Position numbers and translations under genes: made by a program | Part shown: positions 5,667-61,800 of the stretch, piece after piece | Layout of the letters: the number at the start of each line of letters is the position of its first letter | How positions within the stretch are numbered: the stretch's first letter is position 1 | Assembly (NCBI GenBank): GCA_003344405.1 | Contig: NOWV01000162.1 | Span: 62,001-126,000 of the forward strand | Reading direction: 5' to 3' | Origin: Trichoplax sp. H2 | Taxonomy: Eukaryota | DNA: 64,000 nucleotides | Notes under the pieces: generated by a model | Told to the model about the DNA's origin: nothing | Seen by the model: only the letters and a program-made list of their open reading frames with translations | Database searches by the model: none

Positions 5667-8600
5667 TCAGTTACACTGGAATTTATTAACGAGTTCATCC
5701 ATCCAATCAAAATTCATTTCTGTGTTGTCCAAGTTACGATCGATCTCCATCGGTTGCAACTGATGCATTCTTTCGTCATTTTGAGGTTTTATTACAATTT
5801 CTTCGTCTGAATTCGCTGAATCTAAAATTGATAAAATATTTGTCAAATACAATGTCAGTAATTTGCACGTTATACCCTCTTATTTTACCAATTTCGCTTT
5901 CAGAATCGCTATAATCATTTCCATTTTCTTGGCTAAAAAGTCAATTATGGTTGGTTATTTTACTTCGAAGAATGTAAATTTAGCAATTAGTGCATAATTA
6001 GAGAATATAAATCTTAAATTACCCATCCGGCAAGTCAGCAATCGCAGTAGCTTCAAGGGACGATTTCACAAATTGAGCACATATTGTAGTCATCGAAGGC
6101 AGAACATGGGACGCCCCAATAAAAACCTGTTTTAGCAATGAGTACGAAGGTTAAAAATTTTGAAAGTTCTGCAAACTTATAATTACGAAATTCGACTAAT
6201 TACCTCTCGCACATTTTTAGAGTATCGAGCTCTATAGGTTAAATCAGATGCCTGACTTCGATCGTTCATTGGAAGTGTATCTGTGATTATATTATTACAA
6301 GTGTGAGAGGCAACACTGATCAACCACATTTTAAGCAACGAATTCATAATTGATAAAACTGTATACCTTCAAATTCTCCAAAAATACGTACAAATGGAGA
6401 TTCTTCAGATATTCCTGTATTTGTTGTACTCTAATACGCATCATGTTTAATAGCGTACACAGGAATTGCAATAGAACGCTGATTAATTAATATAATAAAC
6501 AGTAAGAATAGCAGTGAAGTATTAGGTTACCTCGTCGTGGATATCATCTTGTCGATCTTCTGGCTCCAAAGAATATAAGTCCTAATTTGATATTAAAACT
6601 GCGTCACGAGTGATCGCGTATAGCGATGTAGCGTAAAAAGCATACCTGGGAGTTTGTAATAAAATAGTAACGTTGGTTGAATAACCAAGAGTCCGATGGC
6701 ATATTATGTGCTTGCGATACCGGCACAAACATAGCACTAATAATTTGTTGATTGCTAAAATCTCTCAAAACCGCTATTGATTTACTCTCATCCGGGGAAA
6801 AAACGTACAGAGCTGCAGATAAAAAATTTAATTATAACCTCTTAATTCGATCTATCAAAGTATTTAGCTACAACTTAATAGTATTTTTTAATCATTTTTA
6901 TTACCACACGTTGAATTCTTCCCTTTAACCAGTGCAGCTTGGTGGTTCGTAGTAGGACTTTTTGTTAGCATAGATACGCGTAATTGAACACACCATTGGA
7001 CTATTATTATGATTACAGAAATACAAGTGAAGTGTCTCAGTTTTCGGAAATTAAAAATACATAATTACACACTAATTTACAGTTAATACTAATTTGAAAA
7101 AGCTTGGTTACTTGTGCATGATAATAGATTCCAAACGTATAAGAGCCTATTAGTGGTTGTTGTTAAGAGATGAGAACAACTTTTACGACCAAAAGCCATA
7201 TGCCTTTAAAAATTTGTAATATTTAACGAATTAGATAAGTTCTATAAAGATATGCTAGATTTGTAATAAATTAAGCCTAGAGAGAATATAGTACCCAGCA
7301 TTATACAGTATATAACATATTCAAGTTATAAAATGCCCTAATAATTCAACATACCGAACATTTTCAGATTTTATCAAGTGAGATAGTGTTTTCTGAATCT
7401 CATTTTTGCTTGGATCCCATAAAGTTACGATCTTATTATTACAAAGCCATGTAACAGGAATAAATTAGTTATGAATAGCTTGCTTATATTATGTTGCAAT
7501 TGATATAGTCGCAACAGCAACTAATCAGCTACCTCATCATAAGCAACTCCCAATAATGATGAATCATGTGAGAAATCTGCAGTCGTTGCTGGTGAGTCAC
7601 GATAGTGACTTACGGAGTAGCACGTCCAACTTGGCTTATCATCTAGAAATAGCAATATAATGTTAGGTCTAACTAAAAATATTATGTAATCCAATGAGAA
7701 CGCAGTGTATTGCTGAAATTATTATCAATCGAATTGATCGATAGTCTATGATGAGACCTACCACGAATACTATCGCATTTTAAATCTAGTAACCATGTCT
7801 TTATGTAGCCGCCAGAATCCGTAGTAACAAGCATAGGTAACGGATCTGTTATAGTTGAGGTATCATTCTCTGGTCTGAATACAATTGCCGTAACAAATTT
7901 ACTATGAGGAGGTTCCACAGTGGTATTTAGGGTATAACTATGATAATAGATATTAAAAAGAAAAGAATAGATTTTTTATTCGAATAGGATTCTCTTTCGC
8001 TAATTTTACGAGTGTTTATTAAAAAGTGACAGTATCAGAACCTTTGAGTAACTTCTGAAAATTCCCAAAATTTTAATTTCATTTCAGCAACGGAATCTTT
8101 GTTGTTACGGCTTTCAATCTACGTAAAGGAATAGTTACTAATTATATTTGTGCTTTAATAAATCTACCATAGAAATAACGTTCATTACAGTTGCGAGCCA
8201 ATTTCCACTTGGATGGAATGCAACATGAGTGACATCTGTAAGGCTAGTTGACTTGTTGCTATGGCTTACTACATAGTTTTGACCAACAACATCCATCTGA
8301 CAATGTAAAAATAGAATACTAACATCAATTTACGGGAAAGCAGCAAGTACAATGAATGGTAAATATATATAATACTTACTACTTTGGTAGTTTTATGACT
8401 ATGAATATCATAAAACTGTAAGCTTCCAGGAATACTATTAAGAACTATTGCACGTGATCTAGGATCATAAACTAAACCAGTAGGTACTGGAGAAGATAGC
8501 TGGTACAACTCACAAGCTAATGTTAAAAAAATAAATCGATTAAATTATATAGTATTATGTACGTGGTATTTTATTATTCTCTTATGAAAGTCTAGTTGTT

Positions 8601-11026
8601 TATTACAAAGTTATCGTCACACCTTTGTGTAGACCTTGAATTGATTGTTTAATTGCCATCTCCGATGGTGAAATTAAATGTATCACTATCGAATTGAGAT
8701 TAAGAATTAAGATAGAAGCTTACAAAATATTTCTATTACAGCCTTTTACTTAAGCTACTAACCGTTATCTTTCAAGCTGACAGCAACAATAGAATAGTTA
8801 CTACTAGAGTTGATATGAACAATTGAACTACCAAGACGTGGTAAAAAATGTTTAGTTTCTGTTCTTAATTGCCATACCACTAATACACCTTCACTTCCAC
8901 CAGAAAGTAAGCAAGATCCTACGCGTATATACAATCAATGTTTTGCAGTGTTAATCGCAAATAACAAGAGCAAATTGGTAATAGACCCTTACCATCAATG
9001 TTATATTGGATATCTAAGACTGGATGAGCATGCCAGTGCAATTCTAGTTGTATCGGTTCTTCATTCATTATTCGATAACGACGCCTAAAAAAATTTCATA
9101 TGACTTTTATAGCTCCTATTAAAATTTGGCCATCGTCTCCGTTATATACAATCATTCTAATATAGCAGTTGTCATAAGCTATACCATAATATAATTTTGC
9201 CTTGACGATCTCCAGTGGCTATGCAATCTTCTAATGGATGAATAGTTAAGCATGTAAGACGAACTCGTCTAGTAAATCTAAACAGATTACATCAAATTCA
9301 CAAGTTAGTGCGCAAACAAGTAAAACTAAAACAATATAGAAATTTATTAACGTAAGGAACAAATTGAATTCTTAGCAACATACTTTGACAATTTACCAGT
9401 CTTGATATCGTAAATGCGTAATGATTTTTTGGCTATAGACGCAATATAACCCCCCTACAGTAAGAGCGTGTAAAAATTAATAATAATAGAACGCAGCCAA
9501 AAGGTTGATATCGGATTCTACGATAGTGTGTGATCATGTCATATCTATCAAAGATTACCACTACTTAATACTGTATAGCTAAAGGTGCAGAATCCTATTA
9601 CAGATTAGATCAAAACTTACGTCAGGTGAAAGTTGACAGTATTTAGTGTTTGGTTTTACGGAAAATAGTGTATTTCCTACGTAGGCAATTTTTTTATCTT
9701 CTAAAGACAACTTTGCACGTATGACGTGGGCTAGGCCATCTATTAATAATTGAAGGTTTTACTTTTGGTAGAACAATTTATAATCGTTATTGCAGCTTCA
9801 ATAACAATGTATACGAGTAATATTATTTATTGCTATCTTGACGGGCTATCAAACCTTTCTTAGTCGATGTCGATTTTTTAGAGGATTTAATTACAATAGC
9901 AGCTGATTCATCGCCGGGCAATGGTATTACTCTCCAAATTGGACAATCAGCGTTAAATACCTATAAAGTGAGTTAAAGTCTTTAATACTGTCGAGATATT
10001 GGAATCGTTCGATATGCGTAGAGTCACAATCATCATTCAATTTGTCAATATAGTAAGTACAAGACACAAACTAGCCTATATAGAAGTGCATGCTTAGGCA
10101 AGTGCAAATTGAATAAATAAAGAGTTTTTATCTTCATCGAGTTACAGTTGAGAATAACTACACAGTTATTGATGGCGTAGTTACATTGCATTTAGCAAGA
10201 CTTTATTACCTTGAGTTGAGTACCAGCATCATAGTCCCAATATATTACTTGTCCATCCAGTGAACAAGAAATCAGCTATTTCAATTGGTTGGATAGAAAG
10301 TAGTTATCCACGATAGATAAAGAATAATGTCATTACAGTTGATCAATATATTAGTGCTAGACAATTATTTTCTTCCTGATCGCCAATATAGCATACGTAA
10401 AATAGACGTGGACACATGACTGTCACTTTAGCGTAGAATTATCGGATATGTTAGCAAATTAATACTGGTCCATCAAGTTAACTTTACAGTCTCTTGTAAA
10501 GGTAAGAATTGATTAGTATGCTTTACCTGCAGGAAATTGTGAGGATTTAATAGGCAATGGGTTATAGTATTGCGGTGTCCTACTAATGTTCTAATAGCTT
10601 GACCGGTATTACTGCTAAAGATTTGAATAATATTGCGACAATAGCAAAAGATATACCTAGCAGTATAAGAAAGGAAATTGAATTAATTTAGCACTGCAGA
10701 CGCTACTATTCAAGTCGTGCTCATCCGTAACGATAAGCCCTATCATTATTATCATTTATCATGATGATGGAAACAACAATCGATATCATTACTATTTCCA
10801 ATTGATCACTTTACTACGATAATACATGGACTAATTAATAGAAAGATATGCCATGGATGAATCTGAAGTGAAAGGATAAGTTGCATTTAGCTGAAGACGT
10901 GGACAATCATTCATTGAAGACCTCTTCAAGGCTGTCCAACGCGCAGTCAACTTACTTTGAATCTTTACTGATGAGTAGAGGATTCTTGGTCAATAGGCGA
11001 TTATGTTTGATCGCTTGTAACTCCAT
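5667..11026 (-). CDS. WDR75: WD repeat-containing protein 75 (UTP17/NAN1, SSU processome), multi-exon
   Basis: Minus-strand exons include LHWHAHPVLD, LLSGGSEGVLVVWQ..FLPRLGSSI, GLVYDPRSRAIVLNSIPGSLQFYD, LKFWEF and PPHSKFVTAIVF. Start MELQAIKHN at 11026; stop from ORF 5667..5852. Confidence 0.85.
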
Positions 11027-11207
11027 CTTCTATGTATAATGTAATAGGACGGTGAATCTATCACTGCTTGCAAGTTCCAATACGACAGTAGCGTATCGTT
11101 GACACAAATGGATACGCTTGTATATTAATTGGCTTTAAAATGGAGCATTCATTAAAAGCATTTTCCACCGGAGCTAAAGTGTTCAGCTGCGTGCAAACGA
11201 ATCTCGG

Positions 11208-11697
11208 TCTTGTCTACCCTTAGTCGCATGGGCAGTTGGGGTTTACAGTACAGTACAGTACTGTACTGTACTGTGTATAGTACTGTAGGCCGAGTATTGT
11301 AAGTGGTAAGCTGATTTCTTTGACTGGAAGACTTTCTATGGTAGTCTATGTGCCTAAGGTCTGTGCAGTCGATGATGTCATCCTAGACGACAACTATGTA
11401 GTGTAAAAGCAGTACTATCAGCATGTTATAGTGACATTCATTTTGCTATGTACTGGTATGATGCCTATCACCGTACAGTCCGTTCTTGTCTACCCCTCGT
11501 CGCATGGGCAGTTGGGCACTTGGTGATTACAGTACACCGAGTATTGTAAGCAGTTAGCTAATTTCTTTGACTGGAAGACTTTCTATGGTAGTCTATGCGC
11601 CTACGGTCTGTGCAGTCAATGATGTCATGCTAGATGACAACTATGTAGTGTAAAAGCAGTACTATCAGCATGTTATAGTGACATTGATTTTGCTATG
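11208..11697. repeat. Two-copy tandem duplication (~215-245 bp) in the WDR75/SUMO intergenic region
   Basis: 11208-11450 and 11484-11697 both read tcttgtctacc..gtcgcatgggcagttggg..ccgagtattgtaag..tttctttgactggaagactttctatggtagtctatg..gcatgttatagtgacatt. Confidence 0.9.
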
Positions 11698-12061
11698 CAC
11701 TGTACAGTGTACAGTACGGTATTTTACGGTCTTCAAGCCACTGCTGTACACTGTACACTGTAGCGTTCTTACACAGGCACGGTTCGGTTCGGAGCAGAAC
11801 TGGACCTGGACCGCAGTAAGATTGTCTTCGTCGATAGTGGAGAAAAAATTCTCCAAATTTAGACTACAGTAAATCAAATTGCAAAATTTGTCTTCATTTT
11901 ACATTTTGTACGTGTTGTAGGCAAGGGACGAATATAACACGATCATTTAGCAATCCTCTCTTTTAGTAGTCGCGGATTCCACAGTACTATTGACGGACAA
12001 TGCTTCTACCGTGCTGTACTGTACAGTACACTACAGTACAGCAAAAGAAGTTTCTTGGAAA

Positions 12062-12306
12062 ACGTTGCAAGAATGTGCAAATACGTACAGTATAGAATAT
12101 CATGTTCTACGTGAGTGCTTGGTGATCGATTCTTTCACTACACTACTAGTAGTAGACAGTAGTGTACACTCAGTCCTGTATAGTACAGTAGACTGAAACA
12201 AGTCCCTTGCAATATTGTACTGTACACGTTGCAAGAATGTGCAATATTGTACAGTAGCCACCTAGAAGGTCATGTTCCACGTGAGTGCTTGGCTATCGAC
12301 TCTTTC
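12062..12306. repeat. Direct duplication (~75-80 bp)
   Basis: acgttgcaagaatgtgcaa..catgttc(t/c)acgtgagtgcttgg..atcga(t/c)tctttc at 12062-12136 and 12226-12306. Confidence 0.8.
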
Positions 12307-12875
12307 GTTTTGTAATAATCACCTTTGTTGATCCTTCTGCAAGATGGAGTCGTTGTGTAGACTTCAACTCCCTTGAAAAGCGCCAACTTTTCTATCTACT
12401 GAATGGCTCTCCCGATATATACTGTAGAGATGTCATCTAGGTGAAAAGTAGTCCTAAAAGGAAAGGCTAAAACGGCAATTGCAACTAAAATGGCTTTAGT
12501 ATTGTGCTTCGGAGGAGGTACACCACTCTACAATACTGTACAACGAAACTGCATTTGAACCGTTATGACCTACAGTACTGTACTGTACAGTACGAAACAG
12601 CGTCACTACAGTCCTTGTCTGGACCGTTTATACTGTACTGTTACAGCTCGTACAGTACTGTACACTGTACACTATACAGTGTACGAGTGGGTATAGTAAA
12701 CGAGGCAAAAGAAAAATCACCTGGTGATTAGAGTACTCTGTACTCTACAGTGTACTGTACAGTACATACTGTGTGCAAGTTACTTCAGCCTACTTGAAAA
12801 TCACTATTCTGTCTACAAACTCTCACAACGATTGCAAGATATCGACAGTCCCCTGCAAAAAAATAGCAATTCATC

Positions 12876-15075
12876 ATGTCTGAGGTTAATCAAAAGGTAA
12901 AATATTGCCTTCATCTGGATTGTTTTCAATATTTTATCCTCACTCTGTATTGCTGGTCTTGTTAATAGGATGATGCAAAGGAAATCAAACCCGAAAGTGA
13001 TCATATTAACATCAAAGTCGTCGGACAGGTATGACGATGACATGATACTGTACTATATGGACTACGACGGTAGGACTTTTTGGCAGTAGACTACATGTGG
13101 ATAAAATAGTGGATTACTCTCGGTTTGGGCTTGATTTCAATAGATAAACCCTATCATTATCAAATTGCAATTACCCTGCTTTGATCGACATGGATCAATG
13201 TTGTATAATGCATTTTCCACAAGCTAGTACAATATAGTAATGTTTAGGTCATGGCTACCTTGTCCAAGTAGTACCTTTACACCTGCTATGTTTTGACAAC
13301 GGCCATGGTATAGTGCTGCTTTTATACTAAGTCTAGCATGCGTCTTAAGGTATTCATTTCTGTTTATAGGATAATACTGAAGTACATTTCAAAATCAAGC
13401 GTAACACACAATTAAAAAAGCTAAAAGCTGCGTATTGTGAACGCCAGGTAAGTTACTTGTTCTAGAATGACATAGCAATATATTATCATATCGTTCGTTG
13501 ATCCCATAATTGCAGTCGATCAAGTAAAATTTGGACCATAAAGTTCGACAGTACAGTAGTGATGAAAATTTCATGTTCTACTATATATTAATGAAGAATC
13601 TTTTCTCCACCTTTCCATGACAGTAGTTTAGCCGTGTGCCATATACCTAGTAACATACTTCAATAATCCAGAGTTATTTCGTAGGAGTCTCTGTCCGTTT
13701 TATTCAACACACTACCGTCATGCCTATACTGTATAATATACTCTGGACCGGTAATAGACTTGTATACGTACAGTACTACAGTATTGTATTGCTTTCGCAG
13801 TGAACAATTAATGAATGACAAAATAACAATTTCCATCTTATCCATAAGGACTCTTGCACTCTACTCTACCATACCAAAGTAGGCAAAATTGATGCCTAAA
13901 CGGGCCCGTACTGATCACTCATTCTGTGAACGAGCTATAAATTAAGCTTTCAATTGATTGTACAGTACTCATGCACATACAGTTGTTAATAGAATATCGA
14001 AAAATTATGCTTGCAATAGAAATCTACGTACGTTCGTATGCAGCCTGGAAATGATGTTGAAATACTTTCCATTGTACAATTATTTAAATGTACTGTCCTG
14101 TACAATCAACTTTCGATCGGCTTATCAGTATTAAAAATATGGCTCAAGATTCTCGTTATTTCAGTAGTAACCAGTATACTGTAAATTCAGTATAGTTATA
14201 TCTAGTGTCGTGTAATCTTACATGTTAAAGATGCTCGGATAGAACAGTATGTGTATGAAATGAAGTTTTTGGTAGCAAACAACTACTTTTCTGTCTTTTA
14301 AAATTACATTGACTCTGTACTAACAAGTATTGTACAGTGCATGCCTACATGGTATACTACACAGTACTACTATAGAATTAAAATCGTAAAATCTTTCATA
14401 GGACTCCTGGCTGTTATAGGTGCGATTGAAATAGCTTATTAATAATGACAATCTATTTAAAATTTTGTATACACTACGAGTATGACGTCAATTCTGTCAA
14501 CTTACTCTAACTTAATATTATTACCTATATTAATGATACGTTCTACAGCAGTTACACTACGAAAGCAGTAAGTGAAATGAGAGCTGTTAAATGCTGTAAG
14601 ATTAAGTAATATTGGACTAGATGGGCGTATACTGTGGTACAGTTGAAAAATGAAAATTTCAGAAAATTGTTTAGCAAGCTAGCACTAGCAAGAGGATATT
14701 GTTGCTTGACTGATTATAGCATTTATACAGTAGCACAGTGCACACATATTATCATTACTATGATTAGTGCTATTTTTGTTAACTAGAGGTCACATCGATG
14801 ATTTTATTTACTTTTCTTGACTATGCAGGGTGTTCCCATTGGTTCTTTGCGATTCTTGTTTGATGGCCAACGTATTAATGATGATATGTCTCCCAAGCAG
14901 GTATGCAGTCTGTTTATCCTGTGCAGGTTTTGCATGATTAAGTAAAGTTTCTTTTACCTTTGCCTTTCTATCGGCCAATGGTCTGAATGACTTCTTAATC
15001 GAATCTATTGATTAGTTGGAAATGGAAGATGATGATGTAATCGAAGTTTACACTGAACAGTTAGGAGGATTTTAA
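12876..15075 (+). CDS. SUMO: Small ubiquitin-like modifier (SUMO1-like), 5 coding exons
   Basis: Spliced [96 protein letters not shown]. It ends in di-glycine plus a one-residue extension. The ORF track misses it because all exons are short. Confidence 0.95.
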
Positions 15076-16582: not shown

Positions 16583-16789
16583 GCACCACTGAATACTGTA
16601 CTTAGTACTGTATACTCTAGTGTTTCCTGTTTAGCTCTGACTGGACAGTATGGATGCGGTCATCGAAACTGGAGTTGACTGACAGTACCACTGTGGCTGG
16701 GCTTAATACTGTAGCTGCAGTTGCTGTCACTTTCATTTGCGTACTGTATCCTATCGTGTGCGCCAGTTGTCGATTTCATATTGGTTTCC

Positions 16790-21894
<5,105 letters not shown>

Positions 21895-29663: not shown

Positions 29664-30327
29664 GGTGCCGATGTACTATAATCGTTTTGCAATGCCTTTA
29701 CAGATTATTAGTGTATAATGAATGTAAAATTTGGTGCCGCTAGTGTCGATAATTGCTGCAGTCAAAGAGAAAAAGTGCAGAAGAATCTTGGACAGTCGCC
29801 AGTAGCGCGCGATCTCACAGTGTGCAGTGAATTTACCGTGCGTCCACTTCAGTCTACGGTGACTGACTGACAGTGCTGTATGGTACATAGACGTGGAGTA
29901 AAACAAAGCTTCTTCTTTTACTCTACCAGTGTCAGACTATGGTCAGACAGACGGTTCTCCATCAGAATGGCACAGTCGCGTCAAGGTAACTGCGCAAGTG
30001 CAAATGGAGCAACGTTTACTGTACAGTGTACAGTAAACGTGCGCACGAGTACAACGTACTGTACACTGTACAGTAAGTCTGATTGTTTTCCATGGCGCCC
30101 CTTCGTTCCAAATCAAAGTTGGATTCCGTTGAAATTCCTGTATCATATTGATATATATATACCCGTATATCAGGCTACAATTACATATAGCATTGATCTA
30201 GTTTGGGCCCGATTGAACTTACACAATTATATCTTTTCAGGGGTGCCATCGAAGTCTATCAGACTCTGCACAGTATGTACGTAAACAGTCCACAACAGTA
30301 TACTGTACTGTACACTGAGTACGTTAG

Positions 30328-30719
30328 CCATGGACTACTACAAGAAGACCTGGATTGATCTCTCTCTTGGACGGACAGACATTCTTCGGCCTCATCTCGT
30401 CCAAATATTGTACCAAACACTTCGTTATGGCGTACTTGAATTAGTAAGTATGCATGATGCAGTTGGTCCATTTTGAATGGACCAATGTTTCCTCAATGAA
30501 GTAATATTGCATTAAATCTGACTATCGGTTACCCATTTCTGCTTCAAAACAGTTATAGAAGATCGTAGACGCTATTGAAATTAATACCGCGATTTATAAA
30601 CTGGACACGGAAGATCCAAACTAAGGAATCATTGATTGATGTTAACGGTCTCATTGGGTAGGAAAAGTCCGTCTCTCCGAAGGAGTGATCAATCCAAATC
30701 TTCTTCTAGTAGTCCATGG
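30328..30719. mobile_element. Non-autonomous MITE-like element with ~53-bp imperfect terminal inverted repeats
   Basis: Left end ccatggactactacaagaagacctggattgatc...; reverse complement of right end ccatggactactagaagaagatttggattgatc... (19 of the first 20 bases match). No coding capacity. Internal perfect hairpin ttggtccatt-ttg-aatggaccaa at 30463-30485. Confidence 0.7.
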
Positions 30720-42505: not shown

Positions 42506-44842
42506 AATTATAATGGGTGTTACCAAGTAAATCTAATATCTTTGTAGAAAGTATTGCTACAATATCAAATAAAAAGCAAATTTCTTAATTGATCATCTAT
42601 GAAGAGGAACGAATCGGTTTACTATTTACTTGGACTATCTATTCATCATCTACTGTCAAATAGACTCTAAAATTATGAAAAAAAAACGAGGTTAACAAAA
42701 TTAAGGCCTTAAAACTTCAACTTACCTAGCTGTCTACTAAATTTATTTATACTTTCATTGCAGTCTACTGTACGTTGAGTTAAAATTTCTTCTGCAAGTA
42801 CTGATTATTGGCAGCTAATAGAATTGATTACAACTTTTCGTTTTACCATAGGGGTAAGATGACCATCAATTGCAATCAACTTGAGATGTTGAATTCTTTC
42901 CCAAACTATCGATTAATTTTCCTTATTCCGTATGTAAAATTGTGGTCATTTATCTGCATCGAGTTCAAATGTATTTCATTCCTATTTATGCAGGCTACGT
43001 TGTGGATTACTCAATTTATCTATTCTCTCTAAACTGTTAATTTGCTAGTAGATTAAATTGATGAAGAAAAAAACACTTGCTATTGAATATTAATGTTGTC
43101 CAGATGATTCTTCAATCTTAAACGTTATTTAAGCTGGTTGTATGAGGCTTGTTCTGCTCGATGTATAATTTAAGACCATGAGTAAAATAACAATGTATTT
43201 TGTTTGGTTGTCAATACAACATTCTTCTCTATAGTAGGATCAATTTAGTCCAGCGTAGAAAGAGTATAGTGTATCAATCGACAAGATATAGTCAATGAGT
43301 TCACCAATGCTTTATTACTTATATCATAATTGATTTTACGCGTATTATTCTTTACCTATCATTCCTGAACAAGGTATAGAATCTAGTATTAAGGCAAAAT
43401 ATCAATAAATCATTAGTTGATACTGAATGCAAATGTAAACAGCTCAGTAGATTGCAAGCATCGTGAATAACAAGCCAACCAATCATATAGCAAAGTTTTA
43501 TGTACCTTGTTGCTATGGTGATGTCCGGTATAACAACGGTAGCAAGCGCTTCCTCCAAGCTGGATGGGGGGTGGCTTTGACGTAGGAGCACTGCAAGATC
43601 AATATTGTAATTATGGATATTTCTTCTATCCCAATAAAGTCTAGTGTAGTCGTTTAAGATAGGGTAGGAAAGAAAGAAACGCATTGAAGGTATTCATTTG
43701 CGAGAGACAGTTTTAATTACTTTGCGATAGTATCTCATAGAGATCCACTCAGGCGGTTGAAGCAGCGCTTAAATAATGTCACCCCTTACGGTGTTGATAG
43801 GCAGGTTAATGCGCATAGAACACTCGATCCAGATAAAACTACACACGCTGTATACTCTTGAGTACAAGCGGGCTCGATTAGCCAGAGTGACATTATATTT
43901 GTTCCGGGCTACCCTTGTGCGGTATCGGCCAACTTTCGCTGGTCAATTTAACTCCACCGTCTAGCTGCAAGCGTACAGTATACAGTACGATGCATTACTG
44001 CTCATATTGGCTAGCCAGCTGGCAAGCTAATTGAATACTTAAACCTTTAAAGATTTAACGTGAACGATCCTTTTCTGTCCCTTTCTCTTTTCTTCAGTAA
44101 CATAGTGTAGAATGCAATTTTGCTGATTGAAATCATCCAATTTCAACAACTTTGTAAACTGATATTTTGACCCGTACGATGGCTCACTATGACGCATCTA
44201 CCCAAGTATGCGGTGTATAGTCACATAGTCAATAGAGGGTCAAAAATACAAAGCAAAACTTCATTGGTACACAGCTGTGGCTCCATTCTACTATAGATTT
44301 TCGACCTAAATGACATAAAGAACATTCTTTAGGCTTATGATGATGATTTCTGATTTCTCAAGGAAGAGGTGTTGTTATTTTAACGCGTGCTTAACTCCAA
44401 GTGAAATCAATGTCACCCATAAACGACCAATATCATTTTGCTAGCGATTTAAGCTAGCGGATTACTAGGTCTACACTACCATACAATCTATAGTATGGGT
44501 ACTGGCTACAGTAGAATCATCATAGGGTGACATTTTTTTTGTACAGTGAGGCGATCGCTTGACTGACGTCACCGTGTACCGTACAGTACTCGGAGCTCAG
44601 TAGAATTACTGTAGTAGCACGACTTGAAATACATCGCAACTGACTTTCCATAGTAAACCCTTGGACTGGAGACGATTTAACCTTGCTAGTTGGCAGAATC
44701 ATGTCTTCCCATCACAACAGTTGAACTCTTTCCGTTCAAAAAGTTGAATCCAACGACATCCATTCTATATTAAAGTCGTCATGTATCAGACTTATTTAGA
44801 TTTATAATTATCGCATACTTTGAGCCAAATCGATTGACGATA

Positions 44843-50417: not shown

Positions 50418-51860
50418 CTTGCATGTTGTGTGCAATCAGAAAGATTCGATTCTATACTATTGGAATCCTGCGGCTTGGCCTTCATTACCAGTGGCCCAAG
50501 ATTGCAAGATGATGATCGGAATCGAATCCACCATGATGAAAACAGTTGAAATGACAACAGACTTCTGTACGTCTGTCTATCTATGACGCACATCACTTTA
50601 AGCCCAGTGTACACTGTACAGTACATAATAATGTCACTGACAGTCATCCACTTCCTAGACTCCAGTATGATATTTCCAATGTTCAACTATGACATTATTT
50701 TTGCTCACACTTTACAATAACATACCGTACTGTATACTGGTACAGATAGAGTATGGGCCCAAGGGCAGCCATTGCAGTTGCAGCTCAAGAAAGCCAACAT
50801 GAATCATGCTTGGATTGATAGACCATAATCCAGCTTAAACTTTTTCGACTCCAAATTAGGACTAATAATTTAATTAACTAATACAGTAAGCAACTACTAT
50901 GATGTCTCTCCTTTACTGTGTACGTAATCCTTGATTGCGGTAAGTGTTTACCGTAGTCAAAAACACGATGCGAACATGATACGATTTTGACGCAGCTTAC
51001 GAAAAGCGATCGAGGAAAGCAAAGTATGAAAGGTGGCCTAGAGTTAAAGAAGGACAGTTGTCGTAATACAAGAGCGCTTATGAATCACATAATCTAGCTC
51101 CAAGAAGCCAAGCTGGGACTACCTCTAGTAGTAATATATTGTATATGTTATATAACCAACTAATGACAGTGGCAAACTCTCAGGAGTCGCTGATGGAAGC
51201 ACAGACTTTGGAGAATTTCCTCTTAGAAGTCCCTACGACATAAGATGAGCGCTGTGATAACATAAGAAAAGTGATCCCATATGCGTATAATATAATGTAA
51301 TATATGAACTATTAAGGGGGCCGAGCGAGTTGAAGGATATTCGCAGTTGTTGCGCACAAGAAAGCGCTCATCAATTATAATATGATCTGGCTTTAAGGCT
51401 TGAGCCAAACTGGAGCTACCACTAGTAAATTAAGTTAATCAATATTGATCCCAAGTTTCTCTTTAGTACTGCAGTTAGTCCCGATAAAAGGGTTTATCGT
51501 AGTCATAATATGATAGAAGAGCTTTGACGATTCAAGAAAAGACATCATATAGTAAATAAGCTACTGTATAAGGGAAGCCGAAAGTTTGAAGAGCTGTAAC
51601 GTCAGCTCAAATCGTTGGCAAAGTAATGTTACTGTTTCAGCTTTTCGCCGCGATTTTCTGCTTATTTTACTATATTATAAACAAATTTCTAGAGAGCATT
51701 GCAGAGATATCGCCGGCCGTGCGTGGCATCGGAAACTGCTAATTACTATTACTTTTGAAGTACAGTAGTGATCGTATTTAGAGCTATGGGAAAATATCGT
51801 TCTACGGCCTTACAAATGGACAAGTCACTTACTGCAGTGTTATAAACATTGCAATCTTCC

Positions 51861-51901
51861 ATGGACCACTAGAAGAAAACCGCATCCTTCTAGTGGTCCA
51901 T
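51861..51901. repeat. Perfect 15-bp inverted repeat with 11-nt loop
   Basis: atggaccactagaag-aaaaccgcatc-cttctagtggtccat; same terminal sequence as the 30328-30719 element. Confidence 0.9.
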
Positions 51902-53292
51902 AAATCTGCTTTTGTTATAGGATGAGGCAATATAAATAGCATGCTAAAATAAAAGAGGTAGAAAATTCTGATCAGTTTTATCTTATAAGGAACTGTTTAT
52001 TTTTAAAACTCTTTTCCCAGCAAATACTACTGAATCAGCTGAATAGGAAGTTGATATACATATGTACATATAGTTGACAGAAACTAATACTAATGTGAAT
52101 ACTGCTAGAGGGACTACTCAAGAAGAGAAACTACGAAAGAGGAACGGGACATACAGTAACTATTTTGGAAAGCACCGATTTTAAGAACACTATATAGTAC
52201 TGTACTGTGACCATACTCAGTTTCGAGTGATCTTGTCAACTAAAACTACTTGCAATTCCTCGCAGCCCGCAGTATTATTTTTGTTATTCTTTAGCTTTAA
52301 TCCTTTTTTATAGCTAACTGATTTAATTGGATATTGCAATGGATTAAGTGAATGAAATTATTTTCCCTACATTCTTCACTCACTTGCGACCTAGAAATGG
52401 TTGAGCATTGATATTACAGTGCGCAGTATTGAGATTTTTTCTTTGTGTAACGACACCTTTTCACTTTGCAGGAGTGATGGCCGGAATTAGAGAGGATGAT
52501 GGATTAATATTTGCACAATAAAAGTGCATCACTTTACGAATTTAGGCGACTATTAATGAGAGCCTTACTATGAAAAGGGTTGAAAACATTTTACTGATAC
52601 CTGTAGATGCTGATCAGAGAGATATTTTATCATGGTAAAAGGCAGCCCTCCAGCCTCTACGGTTAGAACAACCGATCATGAAACTCCTCCAGCATAAAAT
52701 GACAGCATTTAACGGCGATACTGTTTAGGAACTTTGGTATTTTAATTTAACTTACTGTAAATAAAAGAAGTGCCCATCTACAGTACTGTCGTCTGTGCTA
52801 CCATCGAGGTGCGAAAGGAAATCCTCCAACCCCCATGGTTAATACAGCAATTTACAAGACGACTCTGCGCCAGGCAATTTATAGAATTGGAATTTTTTTA
52901 TACCTACTACCGTTTATGGTAATCCATCATTTCCTTATTTACTACAGAAACAGTAGTGGATTAGTAAATATACTATAGTATTAGAAGTAATATTAAAATC
53001 GGCTTAATTTAGTTTATACGTACATACAGGTATTCTGACAGCTGGCTGACAGTGACATACTGAAATACTGTAAAGCCAACCATCACGATTAGGGTGGTAG
53101 CTAAAATGAAATATGGTATAGTGCAGATACGTAAATGATAAAATCAATTGCACGTTGCATAAATTAAACCCTGTCCTGGTGCAATATATCATAACTAGAA
53201 TAATTAATATTGTATTTTTTTATGCCAGCCACCTACCTTGACAACTGCTCGCTCATATACCGTAGCAACAACACTATCGTACCTTTACTGGC

Positions 53293-57422: not shown

Positions 57423-57933
57423 GATTCAAAATAAGCCTATTTCTACTCATCAAATGATATTATAAGAAGAAAAAGTGATAATGATCCTCTACTTGCTTGA
57501 GCTATGTTGATTTTCCAACCAATTTGCAGTTTGCAGGTGTTGGTTGAATGAGGGTTAAAATGCTTGAAGCCCAGTACAGTAGTTACACTGTGCAGTGTAC
57601 ACTGTACACTGTACGCGCGTACTGTACTCTACAGTGTACAGTACTATAGTTTCTTTTTTGACTGTACAGTACTGTAGTACAATACTATAACCATGAACGA
57701 GAGATCTCTCTCTAGTAGTGCTGGAATTCCTGGATCGAAATGAGCGATCGAGCGGCGATTTCTCGATTTCCAGTAGCCATGAAACTGTACCCAATACAGT
57801 ACTGTGTGTTGAAAGAGTCTTCAATGTCACATACAGTACAGACTGTATGTGCTAAGCACGTACTATAAAACTCCGTCAAAGCCGTAGAGGTAAGAAGAAG
57901 AACTAGAGTCCGAAAACTGCCTTCATGTTCAGA

Positions 57934-58512
57934 GCTGTTGAAACTGTACTACAGTACAGTATACTGTAGAGTCCAGTACGTTGTACTGTACTGTACAGTG
58001 TACAGTGTACAGTACCGGACCACCAGAAGGAGGCCCAAGTGGTCCGGATCTGTCCAGTGGTCCAAGCTGTTGAAACTGTACTACAGACAGTACAGTACAG
58101 TATTCCAGTTGTACACTAAATGTACAGTACTGGACTGGAATGCAAATTACACGGTCTACACTCTACAGTACTGTAGGCACGGACCGCCAGAAGGAGGCCT
58201 AAGTGGTCCAAGCTGTTGAAACTGTACAGTACAGTATTCCAGCTGTGTAGTACAGTACTGTACAGTTTCAACAGCTTGGACTACTGGACAGACCGATTAA
58301 GTGCCCATACGCAATTCCAGCAGGCATGGATCACCAGAAGGACGCCCAAGTAGTCCAAGGTCTGTCCAAGTGGTCCAAGCTGTAAAAACTGGTACAGTAC
58401 TGTCTACTGGACTGGAATGCAATTTCCTGCAGGCACGGACCACCAGAAGGACGTCCAAGTGGTCCATGGTCTAGTCTCCACCGTCTGTCACAGTACTGTA
58501 GTAGTCCATGGT
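57934..58512. repeat. Complex tandem/inverted repeat array between PYM1 and CUL2
   Basis: Four copies of ggaccaccagaagga(g/c)gcccaagtggtcc at ~58017, 58181, 58328 and 58437, repeated ccaagctgttgaaactgtac, and a perfect 27-bp inverted repeat at 58206-58232/58255-58281. Confidence 0.9.
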
Positions 58513-58853
58513 ACAGTACAATGCACCCTACATCACCGCTGGGAATACTGCAGTATACTGTACGGAACAGCGGGCTGATCTTGTATGCAATCCCCTGCCC
58601 ATTTGTACACTGTACTGGTAAAGTGGATATTGCCCATTTCGTCTTGCTATGGGTAATGGAGTCTTGGCTGCCATCATAGTTACTCACTCAAAGCCTCATC
58701 ATCGCTTACCTAACTTACTGTTCATGTAATCTTACAAACAACATTTTCGTGCCTTCAACAATTCAAAAAGTGGAGAACAATATCGTAGTCAAGATTTCAA
58801 TTATTACTTCTATCTTAAGGCAATAACGCGGATTGTTGAGTAATCCAAGCAAA

Positions 58854-61800
58854 ATGATGAGGAAAAGCATCGACTACGACGCAACTTGGGCGTCATTGCG
58901 AAAAGTCATCTTTGATGTTCTTACATTGAAACCGGTGGATCGAATTATATGGAGCGATAGTATATCGTATCCTTAACATCATAGGTCTATTATTTGTTAG
59001 CCAGATATTCATTTTCAACCTTAAAATTGTTGCAATCCAATAGTAAACGACCTTACAGGATTAGTGTGTTGACATGATTGTCCTAGGCAAGCCTATACAG
59101 TACTGTAGCGCCATGACCAAATGGATGCAATACTAGCAGTCATGTTACTTTACCCTATGATCGATCAATAGGGTAGAATGCCTTGATCTCTTAATCATGA
59201 CAGTACTATAAAATTGATCAATCGATGAAATAATCATGTAAGTTACAATGACTTTCCTATCATTCTGATGGACTATCTTACTTCATTCTTGCTATCATGA
59301 ACTACTGTAACAGTATTGTGTCAACATGATTCTGTGTAGTCTGTAGCGATCAGTAAATAACTTGTAAACTAAAACTAAAATTATACCTACTCACCATGAT
59401 GATCAATATTACAACACTGTACATAGGTAAAAGTAGTTAATATCCAGTGTTACAGGAGATTAAAATAGCTTCAATTACAATTATATCTGGTAACTAACTA
59501 TTACTATCATCATGGATAGTCTATTGCAGTAGCTGTGCTAGCTCAATTTCAAAACAAGGAAAGAATAGGGATCAATTCAAACTTGTACTACTCTCCAAGA
59601 GTTAATGGCGATAACCTGACTATTATATTCTCTATGTACTAATACATGACTATGACTTGGAGATATTTTCTTTAATGTCAAAATTTCTTACTCGCTCATG
59701 AAAAAAGTGATATTTACTCTATTTGCATCTCTTCTTCGGAATATATCGAGCGTATTTACAACGATTGCAAGGAATTCCTTATTTCCCATATTACCCATAT
59801 TAAAAAGGAGGTAAGTTGAATGAAAGGACTGATGTTACTACTGCATACACGGTACATGCTGAATCACACTATGTCTAAAGATATAGTTTAGTAACATGTC
59901 AATACAATATCAAGTTATGGCTGCGCTATGCTTAGTCTTATGCCTTAGAAATATTTTCGCATGTACAAGTCACGCAAGGATGTGATGACGCAAAACTAGA
60001 AATGTACTCTTTTTATATTTAGGCCATCAAAGAATTACTTGCCTATTTTAATAGCGAAATAGTTTAATGCTGCTGATTAGTATGATGAGACAAATAATTA
60101 ATTTCAATTACATATTAGCTACATGGTGGAACTTTTAGAATGTACTAACTTAGATTTAAAAGGCAGCATCCTACTCTGCTAAAATTAAAGGCTAAAGGGC
60201 ATAGCAGTAATAATATTACTAAAATGTCATAATGCACGTCGTAATTCCAGTGATGTGAATTTGACTTTACCCTTAAATTTATACACTGTACCGTAAATCG
60301 TCTCATAAAATAGGGTCCTTTCTACAATAATGTAATACAGTAATTATTCATCAATCACATGATCGCAATTGATATTTTGACTGCAGCGTTCCAATATATT
60401 TCATCATCACTATACTAATCTCTTATTCGCCAATTGTAGCTGACTGGTGTATACTCGCAAGCTTTACTGAAAAAATATTATGAATATTGGATAAAATTTA
60501 GCTCTGGAGCCAGTTATCTCAATTCCATGTTTACGTATGTTTAATAGCATATTTAGTTATAAGTGTTATAAATGTAGCGTTGTCAACGATTACATATGAA
60601 ATAATTGATATTTATGTAGCTTAAAATTGAAAAGTATTCATATAGATATAACGAAAGCAAGAAATTATAACTGATTTTAGTACAGAATTATGTGATTTAA
60701 CAAAACAAGGCACTACAGTAACCGTAATCACGCGCTAGTAAAATGATTGCAATACGCGTACAACCTTACTTCTTAATAAATATTACATGCAATCCGGCCC
60801 TTTATTCTCCACTTATTGTATCCTTATTAACTATTTTTCATTATCGAGTCTAGCTGTCGAATATGTACGCAGGTTCAAGTAGTTTTTTACTAAATCTTGT
60901 TTCTATCATCTACCAGGTATCTCAATCGTAGTCGCAATTATATGCATGGAAGCGACAGCTCTTATGAACAGATGCCCTATTCAAGCCAAGAGAATGAGGA
61001 GCTACCAGCAGAAATTGGACAAGTAATTAGACACGCTAATTTTCAAATTTTTTATTACAATATTAGTCACTATGTTGTAAACTGTTACATGCAGTTCTAA
61101 TAGTAATGTGCATTAATTTACGAATGGTTATCATCATTGTTAACAAATTCATTATTCCATCAATTATTGAATATTTTTTAACACAGATTGCCATGCAGCA
61201 ATGGCAGGAAATAATCATTGAGGAATACCAAGTTGAATTGGTCAATGTTTTACTTGCTGCCATAGAAAAGTTTGTAGCTACCCTATGAACTGATATTTTT
61301 TAATATTTCAAATTTGAATGTTGTTATGACTAATTGTTACTAGCCGTTGTAATATTATGCTGTCTTCTATGACGTTTTATATAAATCTATATATAATGAT
61401 TCTTATCTAAACACTTCACAGTGATCGTAAAGAAGAAGATATTCCTGTTGCAGATTTAGTACAGGGTGTTATCCATTCGTTTGGTAAATTCGTTGAACTC
61501 TAAATTAAATTTTATCGCTAGTAGTTATAATGGTATACAGCAGATAACACTCTATCAGATACATTCTGACAATTATGCCTAATTTATTGTTTGATATCAT
61601 CAATTTACAGTTAATGTAAAAGGGGATGAAGTAACATCTCTCAAGGTAGGCTATTATCCATTAGGAAAGAACAATTGTATAGTAATTTTGTATTTATTTA
61701 ATACATAAAAATAGATGAAATTAATATATAATCCTTACGGATATCCTTTACAAATCTATTGAGAACATTATCTTATAACCGACAAAATATACTTCACTGT

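Follow-up and report, generated by a model that had tools for sequence, protein, structure and literature searches.

The promoter shared by a WDR75-like gene and a SUMO gene in Trichoplax sp. H2 raises the question of why short units of the form TACAGTA or TACTGTA (TACWGTA) are heaped up in front of genes and how they came to be there. The window, that is the whole 64-kb stretch of DNA that was analysed, belongs to a genome of 94.9 Mb with 33% GC, in which genes are compact and intron-rich. Gene starts throughout were inferred from open reading frames and Pfam, and the names GCN5/KAT2-like, EFTUD2, LCMT2, RAB6 and PSMB2 were assigned by recognising the translations. The WDR75-like gene (5700..11229, minus strand, 3' end approximate) carries Pfam WDR75 propellers, and its putative ATG at 11229 was inferred from translation. 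The SUMO gene (12876..15075, plus strand, end approximate) begins with an ATG at 12876 and was identified by its translation and a Pfam Rad60-SLD/ubiquitin match in one exon, below the cut-off. The stretch between them, 11229-12876, is their common promoter.

Only 15 bases separate the putative WDR75-like ATG from the tract TA(CAGTA)3(CTGTA)2 (11244..11270, no strand), and the perfect 30-bp palindrome that the original prediction placed at 11245-11274 is indeed present, overlapping this tract. The long tract lies in copy 1 of a tandem duplication at 11205..11702 (copy 1 approximately 11205-11455, copy 2 11481-11702) and its counterpart in copy 2 is a single TACAGTA (11528-11534); contigs from both run X2 and run X8 span the junction. 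The duplication measures 276 bp and takes in what are presumably the opening codons of the WDR75-like gene. Further along the promoter come mixed 7-bp and 5-bp units at 11703..11762 (sub-tracts 11703-11716 and 11747-11762), TACTGTACAGTA with TACAGTA at 12017..12038, a TACAGTA with a polymorphic extra unit at 12086..12092 and three tracts (12571-12592, 12651-12683 and 12746-12764) located 110-300 bases before the SUMO start. Elsewhere in the window, four single units (16594..16748) precede the GCN5/KAT2-like start at 16790, tracts at 30017..30312 stand upstream of EFTUD2 (ATG 29663, minus strand), and the PYM1/cullin common promoter (57423..58855) contains 26 TACWGTA.

The common promoter of WDR75-like and SUMO genes holds 27 TACWGTA in 1.65 kb (11229-12876), against 0.5-1.3/kb in gene bodies, and 26 were counted in 11245-12780, where 1000 dinucleotide shuffles averaged 1.3 and never exceeded 6. 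Density reaches 16.1/kb in the WDR75/SUMO intergenic stretch, 18.1/kb in that of PYM1/cullin, 7.0/kb in the 1 kb upstream of the GCN5-like gene and 6.0/kb in a 1-kb interval upstream of EFTUD2 (anchored 58 bases off the ATG), while six gene bodies gave 0.57-1.25/kb and ten long coding stretches 0.45/kb. Units are thus dense upstream of gene starts and sparse in exons (6-18/kb versus 0.45/kb in coding stretches), as had been predicted; every cluster listed at that time was found, although the one at 540-600 consists of only two single units. The whole window contains 144 TACWGTA where 30 are expected. Enrichment is genome-wide, two arbitrary 100-kb blocks having 194 and 284 TACWGTA against 42 and 51 expected, and extrapolation from these two blocks gives an excess of about 1.5-2 x 10^5 heptamers. 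A value of 2.1 x 10^5 is an upper figure, from a sample that included blocks picked around tract hits.

The motif itself is known. In T. adhaerens (ACAGT)n makes up 78% of pentanucleotide repeats and 54% of ACAGT repeats are found no more than 1 kb upstream of genes, with a possible function as a transcription-factor site (Wang et al. 2010, PMC2871265). This microsatellite has the same motif as the present tracts, and the account, in those sections of the paper that were accessible, is given without mixed-orientation grammar, TA anchoring or footprint origin; a footprint origin of the ACAGT motif was not found in our literature search. In the accessible part of Eitel 2018 (PMC6067683) ACAGT is present only in a primer.

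It is proposed here that the tracts are probably excision footprints, stacked on one another, which cut-and-paste elements of Tc1/mariner type left behind; this origin is well supported but unproven. An element with CAG ends would insert at TA, duplicating it, and its excision would leave three bases of one end, converting TA into TACAGTA or TACTGTA (+5); less often five end bases would be retained (+7). Each such event creates a new TA, so that repetition in the same promoters would build mixed-orientation arrays, upon which some slippage and deletion would be superimposed. Promoters may have been struck because they are open in the germline. The canonical excision footprints of Sleeping Beauty are TACAGTA and TACTGTA (bioRxiv 10.1101/659086), and the Trichoplax units resemble them in being identical 7-mers, +5 at TA, with either centre base. 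Unlike those of Sleeping Beauty, as described in the accessible part of that source, the Trichoplax units are stacked and genome-wide, minor footprints are unenriched and an active transposase was not found; the 7-bp units of Trichoplax do not appear among the footprints listed there.

The grammar of the units is consistent with this proposal, for the enriched word stops exactly at a TA on either side, as the footprint form requires. In a 591.6-kb sample TACWGTA had an observed to expected ratio (O/E) of 5.46 and 17 of its 20 other single-base neighbours remained at 0.8-1.5, the exceptions being TACAGTG (2.6) and TACCGTA/TACGGTA (2.0). TACSGTA (2.0) also came next after TACWGTA among the 64 TA-NNN-TA words. 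When TA(unit)+ was collapsed to TA, the remaining pentamer phases dropped to 1.0-1.36. The 7-bp units reached O/E 8.5, with a biased neighbour order (20, 12, 5 and 3 for the four classes). Minor footprints of the Sleeping Beauty type (TACATA, TACGTA, TACTA, TATA) were unenriched at O/E 0.77-0.97, these being short words of low power, and three TATA<->TACWGTA indels were observed. Neighbouring units were of the same type in 210 of 377 cases (p=0.03) and opposite in 167, hence unit orientation is nearly random with slight slippage; the centre base is uncoupled from the flank, and 397 isolated units lean to A-TA-T (0.39 versus 0.33). A pure slippage microsatellite, repeated head to tail in one orientation, was rejected on account of the 167 opposite neighbours and of the 15 among 24 footprint-form indels that are not neighbour duplications.

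These indels come from near-identical copies, in which the mutation pattern is seen directly. In 948 kb, 19 of 28 N-gaps were flanked by near-identical copies, i.e. side-by-side alleles or recent duplicates and probably the former; such copies are at the same time a source of false tandem duplications in the assembly. The 19 pairs showed 103 substitutions in 8968 columns and 24 indels of footprint form, and their five-base indels were TA<->TACWGTA in 20 of 27 cases, a ratio that is not genome-wide because the loci were partly chosen for tracts. The 24 events comprise 8 at plain TA, 7 beside a non-identical unit and 9 compatible with slippage. A tandem set built on anchors gave 96 indels, 20 of them five-base and 15 of footprint form, overlapping with the gap-flanking events; eight were labelled plain-TA, two of which (L003) are ambiguous. 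At L128 one ATAT site exists in an empty state (two copies), with +CAGTA and with +CAGTACTGTA. The centre base flipped between A and T in 7 of 75 cases against 11 of 5621, which could reflect repair outcomes independent of one another, a gain combined with a loss, or micro-inversion. Within the window, 12 of 29 indels against the run contigs were examined and one was a 5-bp unit, whereas joints of run contigs at tracts were ignored since they derive from repeats elsewhere. That unit lies at 12086..12092, which was compared among contigs of runs X2, X8 and X14: an extra CTGTA of opposite orientation occurs in X8 and X14 and is absent from X2 (GTACT behind 12084, next to CAGTA), and the local paralogue at 12250 has one unit. 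The expectation that polymorphic or paralogous indels should be dominated by TA<->TACWGTA was therefore upheld.

The direction of change can be determined only in multi-copy repeats, and there five-base changes are insertions. A passive recorder is provided by a MITE in the EFTUD2 promoter (30328..30719), with ends CATGG..CCATG, core GGACGGACAGAC, 56-bp inverted arms and 185 candidate copies. In 41 non-redundant copies, taken from 54 hits, there were 22 insertions of 5 bp, 11 of 4 bp and 6 of 6 bp, with two 5-bp deletions. Seven of the 22 five-base insertions, judged by eye, are exact TA->TACWGTA changes, five of these seven not attributable to slippage, and one TA gained CAG in a single copy and CTG in two others. 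Several multi-unit and decayed insertions also occur in the copies, some of them possibly common by descent, and the flanks of the MITE are likewise tract-rich. This MITE was itself considered as the writer of the footprints and rejected, as it has CATGG..CCATG ends, variable flanks, TA before 12 of 52 ends and no CAG consensus. It may be the Mutator TIR element of Kim et al. 2025. A short hairpin derivative of the MITE apparently sits near 51860-51902.

The same data bear on a transposon-free origin, in which units would arise by slippage with strand or template switching at the self-complementary GTAC core, or as templated patches from nearby tracts. Such spread would account for the slight excess of same-type neighbours, for the 9 of 24 slippage-compatible events, for the frequent centre flips and for the finding that 6 of 7 recipient TA sites in the MITE read TAC or GTA (p=0.006); besides, most events happened in tract-rich DNA with templates close by. 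Nevertheless, units were gained at TA sites having neither TAC/GTA nor an adjoining unit (L128, C685a 24183, L113 7312 and MITE site 266), and other phases are unenriched. A local inverted template switch predicts centre-to-flank coupling; this is absent, for which reason the switch was discarded as a general cause. Templated spread as a whole is regarded as unlikely.

Inverted repeats of the form TA|CAG..CTG|TA, searched directly in 789 kb, gave seven candidates, none of them real. Within the tracts there is, however, a family of TA-flanked elements whose left end is CAG, and this is new here. It was first met as a 68-bp indel beginning TA|CAG with 39 genome matches, most starting at that TA, and 45 stretches were fetched to define it. 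The left end reads TA|CAGTGTGAACCAGTTC, and its inverted counterpart of 16 bp forms the right end. A search pattern that left the terminal bases free and excluded C at -1 found 53 terminal repeats, the reversed-pattern control giving 0. Left ends read TA|CAG in 24 of 36 cases and TA in 28 of 36; right ends had TA in 11 of 17, with CGG in six, CGA in four and CAG in none of the 17. Complete copies span 155-350 bp, six being TA-flanked at both ends, and of 37 left arms 33 share 88% identity or more with the same copy; one fold-back copy (L179/L188) has CAG at both ends. The flanks contain 44 TACWGTA/kb, and copies lie within tracts ahead of housekeeping genes (L206, L209). Units were gained inside copies as well (four exact +CWGTA insertions and two near ones) and several copies break off at a TA in their interior, beyond which units follow. 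The preference for G-TA is weak (p=0.025), and element ends adjoin a unit no more often than local TAs do (22/42 versus 42%, p=0.13). No copy was found in the 64-kb window. In the L102 pair the copy is truncated and the empty site is not clean; a clean pair of element-present and scar alleles was not found.

Like the Tc1/mariner-type MITEs described in the accessible part of PMC7325037, members of the family are short, non-coding, multi-copy and have TA-flanked inverted ends (16 bp here); unlike those, they have asymmetric ends, with CAG on the left and CGG/CGA on the right, and an autonomous partner was not found, the inner arms ending in tracts and tblastn giving no match. The original prediction proposed to look for Tc1/mariner transposases with CAGT termini; what came to light is a TA-flanked family with a CAG left end inside tracts, and a matching CTG right end was not found in surviving copies. 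The right ends constitute a counterpoint, as half of the excisions of the surviving copies would be expected to produce TACCGTA or TACGATA, yet CWG accounts for 754 in-tract units and CSG for 37 (n=1128), and TACGATA has an O/E of 1.15. Since the right ends are not CWG, we infer that the tracts were written by elements bearing CAG at each end, altered-end copies being left stranded, or else that the family is only a relative; the putative writer is the CAG family or a related one in which either end is CAG. A second counterpoint is that some 1.5-2 x 10^5 excess heptamers are required from few surviving elements. It can be argued that, with one scar per hop, even some tens of elements might produce scars in large number. 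Wang et al. 2010 refer to five Trichoplax elements in Repbase, of which the family may be one, and the Mutator element data of Kim et al. 2025 may bear on both MITE families.

An intact Tc1/mariner transposase with terminal inverted repeats (TIRs), also foreseen in the original prediction, was not encountered among the candidates examined. Profile searches matched DDE_3 twice, DDE_1 three times and HTH_Tnp_Tc3_2 four times; Transposase_1 gave 0 matches, its control being silent too. Eight ten-kb transposase loci were scanned and convincing TIRs were absent, only the best candidates having been scored and young repeats being possibly unassembled. One Tc1 transposase gene (L150 4572-5717, minus strand, G000:C323) possesses an HTH, the full DD34E triad and an apparent in-frame intron, together with a TGA at codon 224, and it lacks a TIR and a close copy; its relatives are at most 41% identical among the best 120 of 1019, and it was absent from what is visible of the 11 Tc1 rows in the table of Wang et al. 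2010. The other DDE genes examined are TIR-less and have no close second copy. Five loci (L043, L044, L045, L042 and L159) carry single-copy, TIR-less, pogo/TIGD-like and Tc1-like long open reading frames, which are candidates for domesticated DNA-binding proteins. Single-copy transposase-like open reading frames of this genome match by eye rows of the T. adhaerens table, as far as it is visible. The units behave as Tc1/mariner footprints do, but their membership of that class is unestablished because an intact transposase was looked for and not found. The predicted excision-footprint origin is partly supported, by TA-bounded units, +5 indels and the CAG-left family; an active transposase, a CTG right end in surviving copies and a clean excision event were not found.

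The single-copy DDE genes suggest another route, by which CWG would be written without cargo, or scars re-cut, by a transposase that has been domesticated or by some other enzyme specific for TA, with the CAG MITE as a bystander. The frequent centre flips, the scarcity of surviving elements and their mismatched right ends agree with it, but an element with a fitting left end and TA flanks does exist, and no enzyme is known to us to add CWG unless a donor end supplies it. A cargo-free writer is considered very unlikely.

Selection offers the last alternative, namely that housekeeping promoters have accumulated the heptamer as a binding site for a transcription factor or as an insulator site. 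The sharpness of the 7-mer and its location in promoters speak for this, as do the suggestion of Wang et al. 2010 and the Chimaera study (PMC12817080), in which repeating ACAGT of T. adhaerens was recovered by a Hi-C model (repeating ACAGT and ACGG from Micro-C models). On the other side, the number and position of units vary among near-identical copies and units are found inside MITEs too. As selection cannot create specific 5-base insertions, a site of this kind may explain retention and not origin; as an origin it is highly improbable. Co-option of footprint tracts as a signal is a separate matter and is suggested only tentatively. Kim et al. 2025 (PMC12221973) tied placozoan promoter hubs to a Mutator TIR motif, and hubs and Trichoplax tracts have in common that transposon-derived sequence is concentrated at housekeeping promoters; in the accessible text of PMC12817080 it is ACGG, not ACAGT, that is ascribed to the transposon of Kim et al. 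2025.

The wider reading, that the promoter repeat is a record of approximately 10^5 recent insertion-excision cycles by few CAG-ended elements that move about within open housekeeping promoters, with scars co-opted as an insulation or promoter signal, must be called somewhat doubtful. If true, it would account for an abundance of ACAGT unexplained since 2010 and would mean that the main promoter repeat of a genome can grow out of excision scars, which as a rule are single traces. It would also imply recent cut-and-paste activity in a genome thought transposon-dead (no active transposons and one MITE family of approximately 20 copies in the accessible part of Wang et al. 2010) and would provide a heritable map of germline-accessible DNA. 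With the CAG family found, the footprint idea is directly testable.

Several minor observations were made along the way. In the PYM1/cullin promoter, 57926-58472 consists of degenerate 110-165-bp tandem repeats with tract length varying among copies, and a hairpin with 40-bp arms lies within it. A GC-richer stretch of about 1.3 kb (43400-44750) with pieces resembling open reading frames is located ahead of an SH3BP5-like gene. Independently of tracts, TACGCGT/ACGCGTA is enriched about 4-fold in the 591.6-kb sample and is possibly a real promoter motif. Finally, a polymorphic 94-bp insertion near 590,700 of G000:C2, a near-perfect hairpin with TGT..ACA ends and an apparent 4-bp duplication, is a mobile element distinct from the others described.
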